The notes beneath the pieces are model-generated. The model was not told where the DNA came from, searched no databases, and saw only the letters and a program-made list of their open reading frames with translations. This document shows, one piece after another, positions 1,938 through 57,941 of a DNA stretch of 58,287 nt. This DNA comes from a virus. A program made the position numbers and the translations under genes. The stretch is taken from positions 1 to 58,287 of IMG/VR virus record IMGVR_UViG_3300045988_068176. One strand, written 5' to 3'. How positions within the stretch are numbered: position 1 is the stretch's first letter; each line of letters starts with the position of its first letter.

Positions 1938-2885
1938 TCAGCCCTCCTTCTGCTCAATTTCAAGAATCTTGCAGATGCTCTGGATAATCTTCTCCGGCTT
2001 TCGCTCGCCACGAAGAATCTTGTAGAGGTACGAATCGTCAAGGAACAATCCAGTATCGCTTTGAACCGCCTGAATCAGCTCCGTTTGCTTCATACCTCGC
2101 TGCAACAGCTTCATCTTCACTTCCAGCTCAAAGCCAGATGGTGTGGTAGGCTCTTGCTTTTCAGACTTAAGAAACAGGTTAACGAAGTAGACCTGTCCTT
2201 TTCCAGTGACCTTTGGTGTTCTGTTAATGGAAACGTGGTCGCTGTGCTGAATCGTGGTCTCTTTGATTTCAAACAGTCCCATCTCCATACTACGCTGCGT
2301 AGGCAAGTTGTAGTCGCTTCGTTTCTGGTCTTTAATGAGGTAGCCGTTCTTTCGCATCCAATCGAACAAACGGTTCTGTCCGATGTTAATGCCATTTTGC
2401 GAAAGCAGCTTTGCAAGCTCACCAACGAGAATGGATTTTTTGCTTGCTGAAACTGCATCAGCAAAAAGTGCTTTCGGCTTCATGGTTTCAATCTGCTTGT
2501 CTTTCTCTTCCAGTTCCTCATGCGCTGCAATCAGGGCAGTTGCGAGAAGCTGCGAGCGGGTAAGCTGCGGTTGGTCAGCCAGCTTCTTTTCCATCTCGTT
2601 GAACGCTGCAATGTACTTCAGTTTCCATTCGAGAGCAGCCTTTCCGGTAAAGCCCATAGCCAGCAGGGTGAAGCCGTCACGGTTCATGAGATAAGTTCTC
2701 TGTTCCCTGCCGTAGCTGTCCGCTTCGGTGCTTTCAAAAAACATCTGCGCAAAATTGCGCACATCTTCTTTTAGATTGTCCACCGCCCTGAGAACGTCAC
2801 GGTGGTTCTTATCGAAGTTCTCTGCAATCTGGCGGCTTGAAACCACAGGCTTGCCATTTCGCATGGATAAGATAATGTCGCTCAT
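1938..2885 (-). CDS. Rha-family regulatory protein with KilAC-type antirepressor domain
   Basis: N-term SSRQIAENFDKNHRDVLRAV...YLMNRDGFTLLAMGFTGKAALEWKLKYI (Rha); central ALFADAVSASKKSILVGELAKLL (KilAC/ANT). Confidence 0.85.
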   Translation of the reverse strand: MSDIILSMRNGKPVVSSRQIAENFDKNHRDVLRAVDNLKEDVRNFAQMFFESTEADSYGREQRTYLMNRDGFTLLAMGFTGKAALEWKLKYIAAFNEMEKKLADQPQLTRSQLLATALIAAHEELEEKDKQIETMKPKALFADAVSASKKSILVGELAKLLSQNGINIGQNRLFDWMRKNGYLIKDQKRSDYNLPTQRSMEMGLFEIKETTIQHSDHVSINRTPKVTGKGQVYFVNLFLKSEKQEPTTPSGFELEVKMKLLQRGMKQTELIQAVQSDTGLFLDDSYLYKILRGERKPEKIIQSICKILEIEQKEG

Positions 2886-3079
2886 TTCCCCTCTCTTTCA
2901 TTCAACAGCTCTTCCAGAGCTTCTTTCACCTTAGCTTCCGCATTTTTAGGTTCGCGCTTACCGTTCAGGATTTTCCCCAAGTATTCCGGTGCGCATCCCA
3001 TTTTTGCAGCAAGCTCTCTGATTTCAATGTTGTTAACGTGAAGCGTCCCTACAACATCGCCTGTCCACTTAGGAAGCAA
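2882..3079 (-). CDS. Cro-like HTH protein
   Basis: 65 aa; TTG start behind AAGGAG; IEIRELAAKMGCAPEYLGKILNG; divergent from the repressor. Confidence 0.65.
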   Translation of the reverse strand: MLPKWTGDVVGTLHVNNIEIRELAAKMGCAPEYLGKILNGKREPKNAEAKVKEALEELLNEREGK

Positions 3080-3096
3080 ATTTTTTCTCCTTTCTT

Positions 3097-3274
3097 GTTC
3101 TAGTACTTGAACTTTTTGAAAGAATATGATAATATTATGGTGTCAAGCAAAAACATTATCGAGCGTTCTTCTATTTGTTCAAAGTCTTTAATTTGTTCTA
3201 CCGATTGAACCCGGTAACCTTATTAAAGCACAAGTAGTAGAACTTTTCAAGTGTTTTTGTTCAAGTGGTAGAAC
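3097..3274. promoter_or_regulatory. divergent switch region with 16-bp operators GTTCwAnnnnnTwGAAC
   Basis: GTTCTAGTACTTGAAC 3097-3112, GTTCTACCGATTGAAC 3195-3210, CAAGTAGTAGAAC 3231-3243, GTTCAAGTGGTAGAAC 3259-3274. Confidence 0.6.
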
Positions 3275-3309
3275 TTCGCCATCTTGTACAAACGCTGGAG
3301 GTATATTTT

Positions 3310-3645
3310 GTGTTTTTTGACAATTTCGTAAGGCTATGTGAGCAAAAGGGAGTAAAGCCGTCTCGTGCTTTGACTGAAGCTGGCGTTCCAAAATCTGCTT
3401 ATAGTTATTGGAGAACCGAAGCAAGTTCAGGGAACGACGCAAAGCCGACCAATCAAAATGCCGTTAAGCTAGCACAGTATTTCGATGTTACGGTTGACTA
3501 CCTTCTCACTGGCAACCAAAAAGAAAACCTGCCCCAGCAGCCGCAAAGTGAAGTCGATGCAGCAGTGGAGCGGATTAGAAGAAAACTTGAATCTATGCCG
3601 AAGGAACAGCGTGAGGCGCTGATGAACCTGATCGAGAAGATGTAA
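3310..3645 (+). CDS. cI-like XRE-family repressor
   Basis: GTG at 3310, 8 nt after GGAGG (3297-3301); FVRLCEQKGVKPSRALTEAGVPKSAYSYW HTH; the track ORF starts at 3265. Confidence 0.75.
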   Translation: MFFDNFVRLCEQKGVKPSRALTEAGVPKSAYSYWRTEASSGNDAKPTNQNAVKLAQYFDVTVDYLLTGNQKENLPQQPQSEVDAAVERIRRKLESMPKEQREALMNLIEKM

Positions 3646-3669
3646 CGTTCATGCCCGGTAAAATAAAAG

Positions 3670-3716
3670 AATCCCTTGTGCCGGGCTGGTGTAGCTCTGC
3701 GCAAGGGATTTTCTGT
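3670..3716. terminator. bidirectional rho-independent terminator
   Basis: AATCCCTTGTG...CGCAAGGGATT stem followed by TTTTCTGTT; A-run on the other side. Confidence 0.6.
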
Positions 3717-3817
3717 TACTCTAAGTCTAATGCTTGTTCCGCTACCGGAATCTTTTCAGGATGTTCCAGCAGCCATGCAATAAATCGGTCAATCTTGGCT
3801 CTTTCCTGTTCACTCAT
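3716..3817 (-). CDS. possible 33-aa ORF
   Basis: MSEQERAKIDRFIAWLLEHPEKIPVAEQALDLE behind GGGAGG; below the track cutoff. Confidence 0.25.
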   Translation of the reverse strand: MSEQERAKIDRFIAWLLEHPEKIPVAEQALDLE

Positions 3818-4003
3818 TGTGACATATCCTCCCGATCGGTAAGTGCAGATGTTCATTTGATACGATTATACATCTTTTAGTTGTCAAGTCAATGTATTTT
3901 GAACAACTTCGTGAAAATCGAACGTTTTCTTCACATCTATTACTTCACATCAGGGAAGCCAAAAATTGCAATGACAATGATTAAGAGCCACATTAAGTTT
4001 AAG

Positions 4004-4249
4004 TTACCCTTTGCTTTGTAACATTCCGTTGAGAATGGAACGAAAGGGGTTTTCAGGCAACTTGTCCAGCACATCTGCTTTGACGAGCGCATTTGTGCTG
4101 ATACTGTGCGAAACATTGTTTAGTTGCACAATGGCATCGTCCAAGTCTTTTACGGTTGCTCCACGCCGTTCCATTAACTGGAGGAAAGTTTTCACTTCTT
4201 CAAGAACGACAGGGTTCTCGACTTTATAGAATCCATTCGTAAAGTCCAT
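4004..4249 (-). CDS. hypothetical protein
   Basis: 81-aa ORF, last gene of a small minus-strand operon. Confidence 0.55.
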   Translation of the reverse strand: MDFTNGFYKVENPVVLEEVKTFLQLMERRGATVKDLDDAIVQLNNVSHSISTNALVKADVLDKLPENPFRSILNGMLQSKG

Positions 4250-4261
4250 CTTTTTCTCCTC

Positions 4262-4465
4262 TCAAAGTTCCACAAGTTGACCGTCAATGCGTTCGATGCT
4301 ATCTGCCGGGTCTCGCCCATCGTCTAAGGCGGCTACGGCGCGTTCCAGAACGTTTTTTGCTTCTTCATAAGCAGACTTGTCAGCATCGTTGTTTGCAAGG
4401 TTGTAGACTAGTTTTAAAGCGGTCTGGCGTGCATAGGGAATGAGCATGGTGTCAATCTGGTTCAT
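4262..4465 (-). CDS. hypothetical protein
   Basis: 67-aa helical acidic ORF. Confidence 0.55.
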   Translation of the reverse strand: MNQIDTMLIPYARQTALKLVYNLANNDADKSAYEEAKNVLERAVAALDDGRDPADSIERIDGQLVEL

Positions 4466-55027: not shown

Positions 55028-56664
55028 TCTTCGCCAAATCTCCTTTTTGTGACGGCAATGCAGAAGCTATCAACTTCGCTCGCCCATCGTGCCGTACCGT
55101 TTCCATAGGTCTTTTGCCAGATAAGCGGGAAGCCACCTATACCATCGAACAGACTTCCTAGCGTGGCATTTTTGACCAGATAAGGTTTCATCTTCTGTGC
55201 AATCCAGAACCACTGCGGTAGAGCAATGCTGTTTCCGAGTGCCTTGTACCGTGGACTGTCAGCGGACTTATGCTTTTTTCCTTTGGTGTCTGTCCACTCG
55301 CCAATGTCAGTCCATCCGCTCGGGTAGCCCTGCAACCGTTCACACTCAACAGGTGTCAAGCGGCGAACAATCCAGCGGACGTTTTTCTCTGCAACCAGGC
55401 ATTCGCTGCCATTGCCGATGTTTCCTGCTTTCGCTTTCAAGGTTGAGCATTTTCCACTTTCCTTATAGTGGCTGAAAGACTGTTCGTTGAAGGTATTACG
55501 TTCGATAGCGATAGCTGTGTAGTCTGTGATTCTGTTTTGGTGGTCGCCTGTGATTATCGGCGCTATCTGGCCGTCGCCATTTCCTTGTGCATTAAATATT
55601 TTTCTTTCCGTGACCATTGGAACATACCCGCCGCCAAGACCCATGCTTGCTGGAAGCGTTGGGCAGATGCCGGTCTGTGAAACCGTTGCATGGACTTGGT
55701 TACTTTCCAAGACTATCGGTTGTGCATTGCTTTCAAACACGATAGGTTGGTGTCCGTGTTCCGCTGCTCGCAATGTCCCCGTCATGTTATAGGACACGCT
55801 CATCGCCCCTCCGCCTTGGTCATTTAAGACGGGAATCGCTTGGAAAAGCGTCTGGTCTTGGAGCGTCGATAGCGTTCCGACTTTTTCTGTTTGCACAAGT
55901 GCGCCCTTTCCTCCTCCGGCACAGCCAGAGCGGATTTTAAGAGAGTACGCAGCTGCTTCTCTGCTTTCTCTCTTATCCGTTCCTTCCTCTCGTTCAGAGC
56001 AGTCAGCTTCTCTCGTCTTATCCGTTTCTGTTCTTCTGCAATCAGCATCTCCATCGCCTTTGCGGCCGCGCCCGGCTCCCACCATTCGATCATTTCCAGC
56101 AGGGCGGTTTGCAGCAAGTCCGGCAATTTCTTTCCACGTCGGGATGCACGGATCAGGATACCTTGACAGGCTCGTGCGCTCAAATAATATTTCTCCGGCG
56201 CGTTGGCCTCCAAGGTCGATGATAAGAGCGATACGTTTTCTACGCTGGGCCACTCCGAAATATTGACTGTCGAGCTGTCTCCAAGCCAAGCTCCATCCGT
56301 CTCCTGAGATTGCTCCGGCTTTGCTCCATCTGCCCTTTCTACTCGAAGGTCTAGGAATTGAAGCGTCTGGTTGTTCCACGCGGGCAAGTTCTTCCAGCAC
56401 GGCTCTGAAATCTTCTCCGTTGTTGCTGGAAAAGACCCCTGGTACGTTTTCCCAAATAGCGAAAGTTGGATACATTCCATTGGTTGCTGCCCTCATTTCT
56501 TTTATGATTCGAACCGCTTCCATGAACAACCCGGATCGTTCTCCCGCAAGTCCCGCCCTGCGTCCCGCAATGGACAAATCCTGGCACGGACTGCCGAACG
56601 TGATGCAATCCACAGGTTCTATCTGGTCTCCGTGAATCTTTGCAATGTCGCCCAAGTGCTTCAT
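55024..56664 (-). CDS. dcm: DNA cytosine-5 methyltransferase, circularly permuted (motifs IV-X then I-II)
   Basis: GSPCQDLS (IV), WENVPG (VI), QRRKRIALI (VIII), ECERLQGYP and LGNSIALP (IX/X), then C-terminal LFDGIGGFPL (I) and WASEVD (II). Confidence 0.85.
   Translation of the reverse strand: MKHLGDIAKIHGDQIEPVDCITFGSPCQDLSIAGRRAGLAGERSGLFMEAVRIIKEMRAATNGMYPTFAIWENVPGVFSSNNGEDFRAVLEELARVEQPDASIPRPSSRKGRWSKAGAISGDGWSLAWRQLDSQYFGVAQRRKRIALIIDLGGQRAGEILFERTSLSRYPDPCIPTWKEIAGLAANRPAGNDRMVGAGRGRKGDGDADCRRTETDKTREADCSEREEGTDKRESREAAAYSLKIRSGCAGGGKGALVQTEKVGTLSTLQDQTLFQAIPVLNDQGGGAMSVSYNMTGTLRAAEHGHQPIVFESNAQPIVLESNQVHATVSQTGICPTLPASMGLGGGYVPMVTERKIFNAQGNGDGQIAPIITGDHQNRITDYTAIAIERNTFNEQSFSHYKESGKCSTLKAKAGNIGNGSECLVAEKNVRWIVRRLTPVECERLQGYPSGWTDIGEWTDTKGKKHKSADSPRYKALGNSIALPQWFWIAQKMKPYLVKNATLGSLFDGIGGFPLIWQKTYGNGTARWASEVDSFCIAVTKRRFGEE
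55824..56480 (-). CDS. 218-codon ORF embedded in the +1 frame of the methyltransferase gene
   Basis: GAGGG then 9 nt then ATG. SLFGKT...NISEWPSVENVSLLSSTLEANAPEKYYLSARACQGILIRASRRGKKLP resembles a module I recall from MTase-associated proteins. Confidence 0.4.
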   Translation of the reverse strand: MECIQLSLFGKTYQGSFPATTEKISEPCWKNLPAWNNQTLQFLDLRVERADGAKPEQSQETDGAWLGDSSTVNISEWPSVENVSLLSSTLEANAPEKYYLSARACQGILIRASRRGKKLPDLLQTALLEMIEWWEPGAAAKAMEMLIAEEQKRIRREKLTALNERKERIREKAEKQLRTLLKSALAVPEEERAHLCKQKKSERYRRSKTRRFSKRFPS

Positions 56665-56732
56665 CTTTCCAAACGCCCGTTTAGCCAGATAGCGCAGCTC
56701 TTATATAAGGTAGGCGGTCAATGCCTTACAGG

Positions 56733-57305
56733 TCAGAATGGCAGCGAACCATCCGGCTCTTCAATCACAGAGAAGTCATCGTTCCCGCCCTGCGAGTAGC
56801 CAGAGCCAGACCCACCAGCCAGCGTTTTCTTCTGTCTGACCTCATAGTCGCCGGAACGAATCTTGTCCACGCTGGTGAAGCGGTCAACGACAAGCTTCGT
56901 CTTGACGTTGCCATCGTTGCCCATGTACTCTTCCTCGCGGAGAACCACGCCGACCAGCTTGCCACGCAGGGTCTTTTCATCGTTGTTGAACTTGTAGCCG
57001 GGATTGGACTGCTCCACAGCGGTGATAAATCCCTTGAAGAACGGCAGCGCCTTCTCTTTGTAGCTCTTGATGGTCTTGCCGCCCCATGCCCATTCGCCCG
57101 GGTTCAGCTTGCCGCACTCGATAAGGGAAGCGGTCTGCTCACGCCAGTAGCCCTTGAACTCGCCCTCTGTGATTTCCCACTCGATGTTCAGGCGTTCCTT
57201 TGCGGGTTCGTCCGTTGCCTTGCAGATACCGGCAACATAGCCGCCAACAGGCAGGGCACGGCGTTCGGTGGCTTCCTGTACGTCATTCCAGTTGATGTTC
57301 TTCAT
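56733..57305 (-). CDS. ssb: single-stranded DNA-binding protein (DUF669/gp2.5-like) with acidic tail
   Basis: 190 aa; C-terminus GNDDFSVIEEPDGSLPF; adjacent to the Sak4-like ATPase. Confidence 0.65.
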   Translation of the reverse strand: MKNINWNDVQEATERRALPVGGYVAGICKATDEPAKERLNIEWEITEGEFKGYWREQTASLIECGKLNPGEWAWGGKTIKSYKEKALPFFKGFITAVEQSNPGYKFNNDEKTLRGKLVGVVLREEEYMGNDGNVKTKLVVDRFTSVDKIRSGDYEVRQKKTLAGGSGSGYSQGGNDDFSVIEEPDGSLPF

Positions 57306-57308
57306 CTG

Positions 57309-57941
57309 TTACTCTCCTTTGTTATCCGGCTGAACCGGGATGTTGTAATACTCACGGATGGTCTTGTCTACGGTGGCGAGGTCGTTCTCGATCAGCGCAT
57401 CGTTGAACATCCCAAGGGGGGTTTTCACGGTGTCCATCCCATCATTGCGAGTGCTGAACAGGTATCGCCCATCCTGCACAACGGTTTTCAGAACGATGGT
57501 AAAGTACCCTTCCACGCAGACCTTTTCGTCCAGTAGCTTTCCGATGGTTTTAAACTTCTCGCCACCGTCTCCGTCACGCTCGCTGTGACCGAAAAAGTAG
57601 ACCACAACATCGTCCGGCAGTTCCTTTGCCCGCATCAGCAGAGCGTTGAAGTTGGCTGCCATGTCGGTAAACTTCTGGTATCCAGCGACCTTTGCGTTCC
57701 GCATGAACTCGCCAGTCATAAGGTAGGTGGCATCGTCAATGACGATGGACTTACGCTTGGTGCTGTGGATTGCGGCATCAATCTTGCCGTAGTCGTTGGT
57801 GATATAGGTTTTCATGTTGTTGCGGAACGGCAGCGGCTTGCCAAGCACGTTGATGACTGCAACCTGTTCCGGGTCAAAGTTCCGAAGCGAAGCGGACTTA
57901 CCGCTGCCGGAGTGACCGTAGACCATTACTAATACTGCCAT
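57309..57941 (-). CDS. Sak4-like/AAA_24 recombination ATPase
   Basis: VMVYGHSGSGKSAS Walker A; IVIDDATYL Walker B. Confidence 0.75.
   Translation of the reverse strand: MAVLVMVYGHSGSGKSASLRNFDPEQVAVINVLGKPLPFRNNMKTYITNDYGKIDAAIHSTKRKSIVIDDATYLMTGEFMRNAKVAGYQKFTDMAANFNALLMRAKELPDDVVVYFFGHSERDGDGGEKFKTIGKLLDEKVCVEGYFTIVLKTVVQDGRYLFSTRNDGMDTVKTPLGMFNDALIENDLATVDKTIREYYNIPVQPDNKGE

Follow-up and report, generated by a model that had tools for sequence, protein, structure and literature searches.

The gene for a cytosine-C5 DNA methyltransferase (MTase) of a phage appears to carry a second gene within it, on the same strand and in the +1 frame, written over the catalytic motifs of the enzyme. The DNA in question is positions 1 to 58,287 of the IMG/VR virus record IMGVR_UViG_3300045988_068176 (58,287 nt; hereafter the window), in which the MTase is encoded on the minus strand and the nested open reading frame (ORF) occupies positions 55824-56480. 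We put the probability that this ORF is a genuine overprinted gene at about 80%. The nested arrangement appears to be ancestral to a large clade of C5 MTases of phages and mobile elements found in Firmicutes, Actinobacteria, Proteobacteria and other phyla, and the nested gene would be an overprinted phage gene of unusual age and breadth. The evidence comes from the openness of the +1 frame among relatives, from initiation signals that the nested ORF keeps for itself, and from a segment of the product that is better conserved than the MTase residues encoded by the same DNA.

The nested reading frame

The ORF had been noticed in a sequence-only reading, which described 218 codons beginning with ATG in the +1 frame of the MTase gene, 9 nt past a GAGGG. 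Coordinates and start signal are as described, with the clarification that both genes lie on the minus strand of the window, and the peptide strings quoted for the two frames are exact: the main frame reads GWSLAWRQLDSQYFGVAQRRKRIALIIDLGG where the +1 frame reads DGAWLGDSSTVNISEWPSVENVSLLSSTLEANAPEKYYLSARACQGILIRASRRGKKLPDLLQTAL. The ORF lies wholly within the MTase gene and starts 184 nt (3 x 61 + 1) past the start of the latter, so that all 657 nt are shared. The correspondence of the frames can be followed residue by residue; VADFGG of the MTase is SQILE in the +1 frame, and GGA GAA ATA TTA TTT GAG gives GEILFE in the one and EKYYLS in the other. The lysine-, arginine- and glutamate-rich C-terminal half overlies a low-complexity stretch of the MTase (amino acids (aa) 189-240), again as the sequence-only reading had it. 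That reading had also likened the +1 sequence to a module of proteins associated with DNA methyltransferases on mobile elements. Such a module does exist, though not as a domain of its own in other contexts; all cases checked proved to be the motif VI-VIII region of this same MTase clade, read in the +1 frame.

The product can be divided into four parts (Table 1), and its predicted structure follows the division. An AlphaFold2 (AF2) model built from an 84-sequence alignment has a confidence score (pLDDT) below 50 over residues 1-78 and of about 90 in three helices, 102-115, 121-134 and a long helix 138-185, with lower values in the tail. These confident helices coincide with the part of the ORF that is selected in the +1 frame (see below). 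The first two belong to a basic hairpin that includes the peptides YYLSAR, ACQGILIR and LPDLLQTALLEMIEWWEPGAAAK. The long helix arises from an insertion, a net gain of 107 nt relative to the close relative L013, placed between '..EMIEWW' and 'AY(S/T)LKIRSG' of the MTase; in the +1 frame it reads as a heptad-like helix of lysine, glutamate and arginine, and in the MTase frame as a low-complexity loop, ..GRGRKGDGDADCRRTETDKTRE...

Homologues and their annotation

The sequence-only reading had expected that a real gene would have homologues of its product, would remain free of stops in relatives and would suppress synonymous variation in the MTase frame, and all three are found. With the 218-aa protein as query, 1044 proteins match at E<=1e-3, the best 120 being 'hypothetical proteins' of 209-233 aa with 74-92% identity. 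An exhaustive search of representatives clustered at 50% identity gave 2844 clusters, 567 of them at E<=1e-10, and a profile of the first ~135 nested residues matched 5166 clusters at 90% identity. The nested protein lies outside every described protein family. Searches of PHROGs returned weak matches only, to phrog_16143 'DNA methyltransferase' (E=1.5e-7 to 7e-3), and no Pfam domain covers the nested part in the homologues.

A tblastn search against annotated phage genomes matched 152 records, among them the dmt/dam region of P1 and P7, Streptococcus Javan prophages, and phages of Vibrio, Pseudomonas, Serratia, Pectobacterium and Mycobacterium. In all five records examined (P1, Javan191, Mycobacterium phage Dallas, Vibrio phage 1.171.O and Pseudomonas phage D14E) the match is +1 to the annotated coding sequence (CDS) of an MTase. 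Each has an ORF of 131-163 codons that is unannotated, the hairpin sequence is kept in all five, and the GC content of the locus ranges from 37 to 62%.

In phage P1 (L011, NC_005856) the unannotated +1 ORF has 162 codons, lies at 2396-2884 inside dmt (2095-4359), at about 66713-67201 of the record NC_005856, and ends ..LLSQVLEQTSIPQRYFLSSKACAGILRRGEKRRKSLPPLLQMALQSVAKA. The dmt gene of P1 offers an experimentally tractable model for the nested gene. In Mycobacterium phage Dallas (L174, 1047-2495) annotation divides the MTase into two CDS, after which comes a gene for an HNH endonuclease; the +1 ORF begins 5' of motif IV and has 159 open codons, which at this high GC content is weak evidence on its own, and the hairpin sequence is conserved.

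Annotation pipelines discard long same-strand overlapping genes by design. Public gene callers often call the nested ORF, sometimes splitting or dropping the MTase, and at least one such call stands in the nr database as 'hypothetical protein'. On two related contigs (L003, 3817-5934, and L008, 2524-4161) the nested ORF is called publicly and the MTase suffers, its 705-aa ORF being left uncalled, with a gap of 1.2 kb, or cut to a C-terminal fragment of 197 aa. Calls made at the cost of the MTase imply that automated annotation of the clade is systematically disturbed by the overlap. A full-text search of the literature, limited to open-access papers and bioRxiv, yielded no account of any gene lying within that of a C5 MTase.

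The +1 frame is open among relatives

Two samples of loci were compared. The first comprised 80 viral loci found through the nested module itself. Circularity was avoided in the second, 80 loci from species-representative genomes that were found only through the motif-IV segment of the MTase, which lies 5' of the nested ORF; these came from Clostridia, Bacilli, Actinomycetota, Bacteroidales, Fusobacterium and one metagenome-assembled genome of a Planctomycete. Of the 62 loci in the second sample that align over the full length, all selected by the MTase frame alone, 61 carry the +1 frame through without a premature stop. Fourteen genome loci show 'single stops', but decay of the ORF was rejected as their cause; each is the ORF's own terminator, where the alignment ends. 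In most loci the stop of the nested ORF falls 0-10 codons past the hairpin.

This openness is peculiar to the frame and to the region. Over the same stretch, 3-13 stops are present in the +2 frame. Outside it, stops in the +1 frame of these MTase genes have a density of 0.05 per codon (6.6 expected per 132 codons), and not one of 843 equal-sized +1 windows there is free of stops. The classical C5 MTase gene dcm of E. coli, taken as a negative control, is interrupted by five stops when its equivalent region is read in the +1 frame. As a recoding control, each MTase segment was rewritten with synonymous codons drawn from the usage of its own gene, and 2.7 +1 stops per locus are then expected, with a mean probability of 0.084 of finding none.

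Start signals

The nested ORF has conserved initiation signals of its own. At the aligned position of the nested start, 67 of 72 loci have ATG and three more have GTG (70/72 with a start codon). The MTase codon that overlies the ATG is AAT (51), GAT (9) or CAT (7), so it always ends in T despite the changes among Asn, Asp and His, although nearby codons for these residues end in T only ~54% of the time. A Shine-Dalgarno (SD)-like 4-5-mer is present in 62 of the 67 loci with ATG. It depends on the Arg codon of '..EMR..', ten nt 5' of the ATG, which is AGG in 34 of 39 non-redundant loci and so gives GAGG; the background frequency of AGG among the Arg codons of the same MTase genes is 14%. In loci where Gln-Glu replaces this Arg, the DNA reads CAGGAGG.

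Which frame is selected, and where

Entropies per position were computed over non-redundant loci, 44 viral and 50 genomic. Over nested columns 1-90, which overlie motifs VI-VIII, the third position of the MTase codons is the most variable, and identity is higher in the MTase frame (0.62 vs 0.36 in the +1 frame for columns 1-30; 0.60 vs 0.41 for columns 61-90). The relation is reversed over columns 91-127 (PEKYYLSAKACQGILRRAxRRGKxLPxxLxxAL), the hairpin. Here entropy is 1.42 at the +1 third positions vs 0.91 at those of the MTase, and mean pairwise identity is 0.55 in the +1 frame vs 0.35 in the MTase frame.

Synonymous variation in the MTase was compared between pairs of loci that share an identical MTase dipeptide. 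Inside the nested ORF, its N-terminal part included, the +1 residue is then identical in 0.54-0.60 of cases, vs 0.39 in the MTase-only region just upstream. In the coil insert (43 codons, seven loci with the insert) the variable sites number 5/5/20 at +1 codon positions 1/2/3. In the last 40 nested codons, which overlie the start of the target recognition domain (TRD) of the MTase, they number 3/18/5, so the wobble there belongs to the MTase frame and the tail of residues 179-218 is an unselected by-product of it. These patterns indicate purifying selection on the second frame in the hairpin and the coil.

Variant layouts

The layouts of 147 loci fall into three types: in 116 the nested ORF is short (type a), in 22 it is extended as in the window (type c), and in nine the hairpin is in frame with TRD-IX-X, the MTase frame stopping 8-13 codons later (type b). 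One of the type b loci is L013, with 89% identity to the window over this part. Its ORF-A (motifs IV-VIII, 208 aa) overlaps its ORF-B (module-hairpin-TRD-IX-X-I-II, 439 aa), and the layout of P0124, P0254, P0188 and P0214 is the same.

Homopolymers accompany these rearrangements. Seven of the nine type b loci have one of 7-9 bases near the junction. At the junction of hairpin and TRD the tract is G8 or G9 in five type b loci (L013, L029, L043, L048, L051) and G7 or G6 in sister type a loci with a fused MTase (L015, L021, L026, L045, L156, L163). Between motifs VI and VIII, ~138-142 nt into the nested ORF, there is a second tract of poly-G, which is G6 or G7 in intact loci and G8 or G9 in seven of eight loci in which the module is split (L033, L035, L037, L041, L042, L110, L171). 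With G9 at this second tract, motifs IV-VI read straight into the hairpin and motif VIII is skipped, as in protein P0180. The pattern resembles phase variation in which the two frames are re-wired, with errors in the assembly of homopolymers in metagenomes as a possible alternative. Looked for as a slippery site for frameshifting or slippage, a homopolymer of six or more bases is absent from the window at both positions.

The nested ORF has also been lengthened in another way. In L017, L024, L025, L030, L036, L038 and L039 a different +1 extension of 40-44 aa (NPGTLSQVMQKVKEQEGLEEKELDEY..) follows directly after the hairpin. It takes the place of the coiled coil of the window, which implies that the nested ORF was extended independently at least twice; a second kind of extension is a further sign that evolution acts on the +1 product.

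A model for expression and origin

In the model that we favour, ribosomes would start on the MTase mRNA at the internal SD site and ATG, both signals having been built from synonymous choices in MTase codons (..EMR..TN-G..). The first ~94 residues of the product would be dictated by motifs VI-VIII of the enzyme and mainly kept free of stops. [quoted passage not shown] To this the phage lineage of the window would have added the coiled coil of residues 135-178, by an insertion that the MTase frame reads as a loop.

As to function, the favoured suggestion is that of a small accessory protein working with the MTase or its DNA substrate. It is based on three features of the nested product, namely that it is found only inside the MTase clade, that it is conserved though the TRDs, and hence the specificities, differ, and that it can be fused directly before the TRD. 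Its active portion would be the basic hairpin, while in the phage of the window the coiled coil would allow oligomerisation. The nested product might instead be an obligatory piece of the enzyme, the hinge segment that follows motif VIII having moved to the +1 frame so that the MTase is assembled from two frames. An hhalign comparison bears on this. The MTase frame of the clade aligns with residues 88-283 of E. coli Dcm (probability 98%), and the only match of the nested module to Dcm, weak as it is (probability 3.6%, P=0.012), places module columns 58-114 on Dcm 283-338, colinear and directly following the residue where the MTase-frame alignment ends. The second piece would then be a free small subunit, or would be fused to the TRD upon slippage in poly-G, and the length of the tract would switch the locus among several enzyme architectures. 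We regard an obligatory piece as doubtful.

Alternative explanations

Several observations weigh against a free nested gene. Translation of the ORF is deduced from the DNA sequence. The loci compared are phylogenetically related, so that their counts are not independent, and over nested residues 1-90 it is the MTase frame that accounts for most of the conservation. In ~5% of loci the hairpin stands in the TRD frame or the module is split between frames, and there the +1 segment can be part of the MTase polypeptide and not a free protein. Over the coil insert alone, an antisense ORF on the plus strand (55891-56166) shares the wobble positions of the nested ORF, and the pattern of variable sites cannot separate the two. 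Databases also gave no clue to function. The nested protein had only a chance match in Pfam (MCU, E=0.68) with no family over the nested part, no family in NCBIfam or PADLOC and no match in a sequence search of the PDB, and a Foldseek comparison of the AF2 model with the PDB gave no fold match (best E=1.9).

The variant loci can be given another meaning, in which the +1 segment is an alternative piece of the MTase and no independent gene, and the free 218-aa product of the window is a leftover. The nested ATG would then start a second subunit (hairpin-TRD-IX-X, as in the split M.AquI), or frameshifting or slippage would reach the hairpin. The two overlapping ORFs of L013, P0124, P0254, P0188 and P0214 fit such a scheme, as do the weak placement of the module right after Dcm 283, the longer G tracts at the junction (G8/G9, vs G7 in fused sisters) and the second tract, which would explain seven of the eight split-module loci. 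However, in the window and in ~80% of loci the +1 ORF ends just past the hairpin and it is the MTase frame that encodes the TRD, and in loci of this kind purifying selection in the +1 frame still acts on the hairpin. A frameshift, moreover, needs neither an open +1 frame nor an ATG and SD site 90 codons upstream, the tracts are missing from the window, and differences in poly-G length between metagenome assemblies may be errors. This scheme is, in our judgement, unlikely. Could the open frame and its conservation instead be passive by-products of conserved MTase residues and codon usage, with no product at all? The first 90 residues would agree with this, being better conserved in the MTase frame and, in their N-terminal part, predicted by AF2 to be disordered, and invariant +1 residues such as G10 map to the invariant W-E-N of motif VI. 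Such an origin is very unlikely, and chance or by-product was rejected as an explanation by the recoding control, which predicts stops that 61 of 62 loci do not have; the control gene dcm has five. Nor would a by-product keep an ATG and SD site through synonymous choices and across residue changes, or give a hairpin better conserved in the +1 frame and with +1 wobble, a property that holds from 37% to 62% GC.

There remains constraint at the level of nucleic acid (an RNA structure or a regulatory site), or a gene on the plus strand. The 5/5/20 distribution of variable sites has the three-base periodicity of coding DNA, which speaks against RNA structure. The antisense ORF 55891-56166, of 91 aa, extends over the coil and some of the hairpin, with its third codon positions at the same bases as in the nested ORF. 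Yet in 134 of 147 loci stops interrupt the hairpin in the antisense frame with the +1 wobble, which leaves the wobble pattern unexplained by an antisense gene, and this explanation was rejected; each antisense frame is open along the full module in 11 of the 147 at most. The product would be an S/F/L-rich shadow of the K/E/R coil, and the ORF is most likely a shadow ORF. We consider constraint of either of these kinds extremely improbable. An overprinted gene remains the reading that we prefer.

Relation to known systems

To our knowledge, it is very rare for long overlapping genes on one strand to be conserved across bacterial phyla. A close likeness in arrangement is the spanin gene pair of phage lambda, where Rz1 lies entirely inside Rz in the +1 frame, has its own SD site and start, and makes a product that works together with that of Rz. 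Like Rz1, the nested gene is completely contained in another phage gene, on the same strand and in the +1 frame, and has an SD site and start of its own. The proteins are unrelated, serving lysis there and DNA modification here, and in the present case the host gene is an enzyme whose motifs VI-VIII are overprinted, in several bacterial phyla, and translation and partnership are putative. In E. coli, the repair endonuclease gene vsr (2030448-2030918) overlaps the 3' end of dcm (2030899-2032317), and there too the gene of a C5 MTase has DNA in common, out of frame, with that of a functionally linked protein; the overlap is 20 nt at the end of the gene, vs 657 nt nested here. The Vsr endonuclease domain (PF03852) was not found in the nested product in Pfam (at E<=1) or NCBIfam.

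Phase-variable DNA methyltransferases (phasevarions) have simple repeats inside their mod genes. Relatives of the window similarly carry G6-G9 tracts in the MTase gene, the length of which correlates with the frames that are joined, although the window itself has no tract. A shift in tract length here would re-wire two overlapping coding frames and not just turn a gene off. Split C5 MTases of the M.AquI type differ from the MTase of the window, which is one continuous ORF through the linker. The split is present in the relatives L013, L023, L029, L043, L048, L051 and L093. Their two ORFs overlap by ~440 nt in different frames, and the available part of a 2018 survey mentions no such overlap for M.AquI (PMC5944983). 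Finally, an out-of-frame HNH insertion, 'ShiLan', has been described in an actinophage methylase (PMC11855218). It resembles the insert at 55947-56078 in being an insertion into a phage methylase that leaves the host frame without stops, forms a loop when read in that frame and has its real coding in another. It differs in that the insert of the window extends a nested ORF that already existed and is not a self-contained homing element; the nested ORF itself is no insertion. The insert, a predicted coiled coil, had no match to a nuclease family in Pfam, HNH and other homing endonucleases included.

The nested gene sits in one of the most widespread gene classes of phages and mobile elements and, even in dmt of the textbook phage P1, has never been annotated. 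If it is translated, studies of orphan cytosine methyltransferases, be it for anti-restriction, epigenetic effects or use as tools, have manipulated two genes together, and knock-out, codon optimisation or heterologous expression of the MTase would silently remove or alter a second protein. It would also provide a natural system for a protein written over catalytic motifs, disordered where the old gene constrains it and folded where it is free, and one that is directly testable in E. coli with P1.

The host methyltransferase and its neighbourhood

The host gene encodes a C5 MTase by its strings for motifs I, IV, VI, VIII, IX and X, namely LFDGIGG, GSPCQ, ENVPG, QRRKR, RRLTPVECERLQG and GNSIALP. 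The motif order is IV-VI-VIII-TRD-IX-X-I-II and departs from the canonical order of I to X. The enzyme is circularly permuted, with the break between motifs II/III and IV, so that motifs IV-X come first and I-II stand at the C-terminus. Its termini, '..AVTKRRFGEE*' (C) and 'MKHLGDI..' (N), adjoin in canonical relatives such as Javan191, and the relatives L003, L008 and L013 have the same permuted order as the window. This permutation is unusual. The permuted order of motifs as such is shared with M.BssHII, M.Alw26I, M.Esp3I and others, but according to a 2018 survey the natural permuted C5 MTases then known are all broken in the variable region, unlike the MTase of the window (PMC5944983).

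Table 1. Features of the MTase gene and of the ORF nested in it (positions in the window)
Feature	Position	Strand	Basis
C5 cytosine DNA MTase, host gene, 546 aa	55024..56664	-	ORF list; Pfam PF00145, E=2.8e-34
MTase motif IV	56581-56595	-	located in MTase frame
MTase motif VI	56437-56451	-	located in MTase frame
MTase motif VIII	56233-56247	-	located in MTase frame
MTase motif IX	55327-55365	-	located in MTase frame
MTase motif X	55216-55236	-	located in MTase frame
MTase motif I	55132-55152	-	located in MTase frame
MTase motif II	55069-55086	-	located in MTase frame
Nested +1-frame ORF, 218 codons, ATG start, stop at 55824-55826	55824..56480	-	ORF list, homologues
In-frame TGA, five codons 5' of nested ATG, closing the +1 frame	56493-56495	-	
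SD-like GAGGG, 9 nt 5' of nested ATG, from MTase codons ATG-AGG-G ('..EMRA..')	56490..56494	-	
Nested start ATG, from MTase codons AAT-G (Asn-Gly, A-ATG-G)	56478..56480	-	
Nested residues 2-94, predicted disordered, over MTase motifs VI-VIII	56199..56477	-	AF2, entropy
Nested residues 95-134, conserved basic two-helix hairpin (predicted) PEKYYLSARACQGILIRASRRGKKLPDLLQTALLEMIEWW, over unconserved MTase linker after motif VIII	56079..56198	-	
Nested residues 135-178, predicted coiled-coil extension on lineage-specific insertion	55947..56078	-	DNA alignment to L013, AF2
Nested residues 179-218, tail over start of MTase TRD (AYSLKIRSGCAGGGKG..)	55827..55946	-	variable sites

The genes around the MTase belong to a phage replication and recombination module, with an AAA_24 ATPase at 57309-57941. 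The nearest named relatives are the Faecalibacterium phages Toutatis and Lelie, and uncultured gut phages are also related. An ORF of 271 aa at 56721-57536 on the plus strand, antisense to the genes at 56733-57305 and 57309-57941 (the AAA_24 ATPase), is probably a chance shadow ORF.

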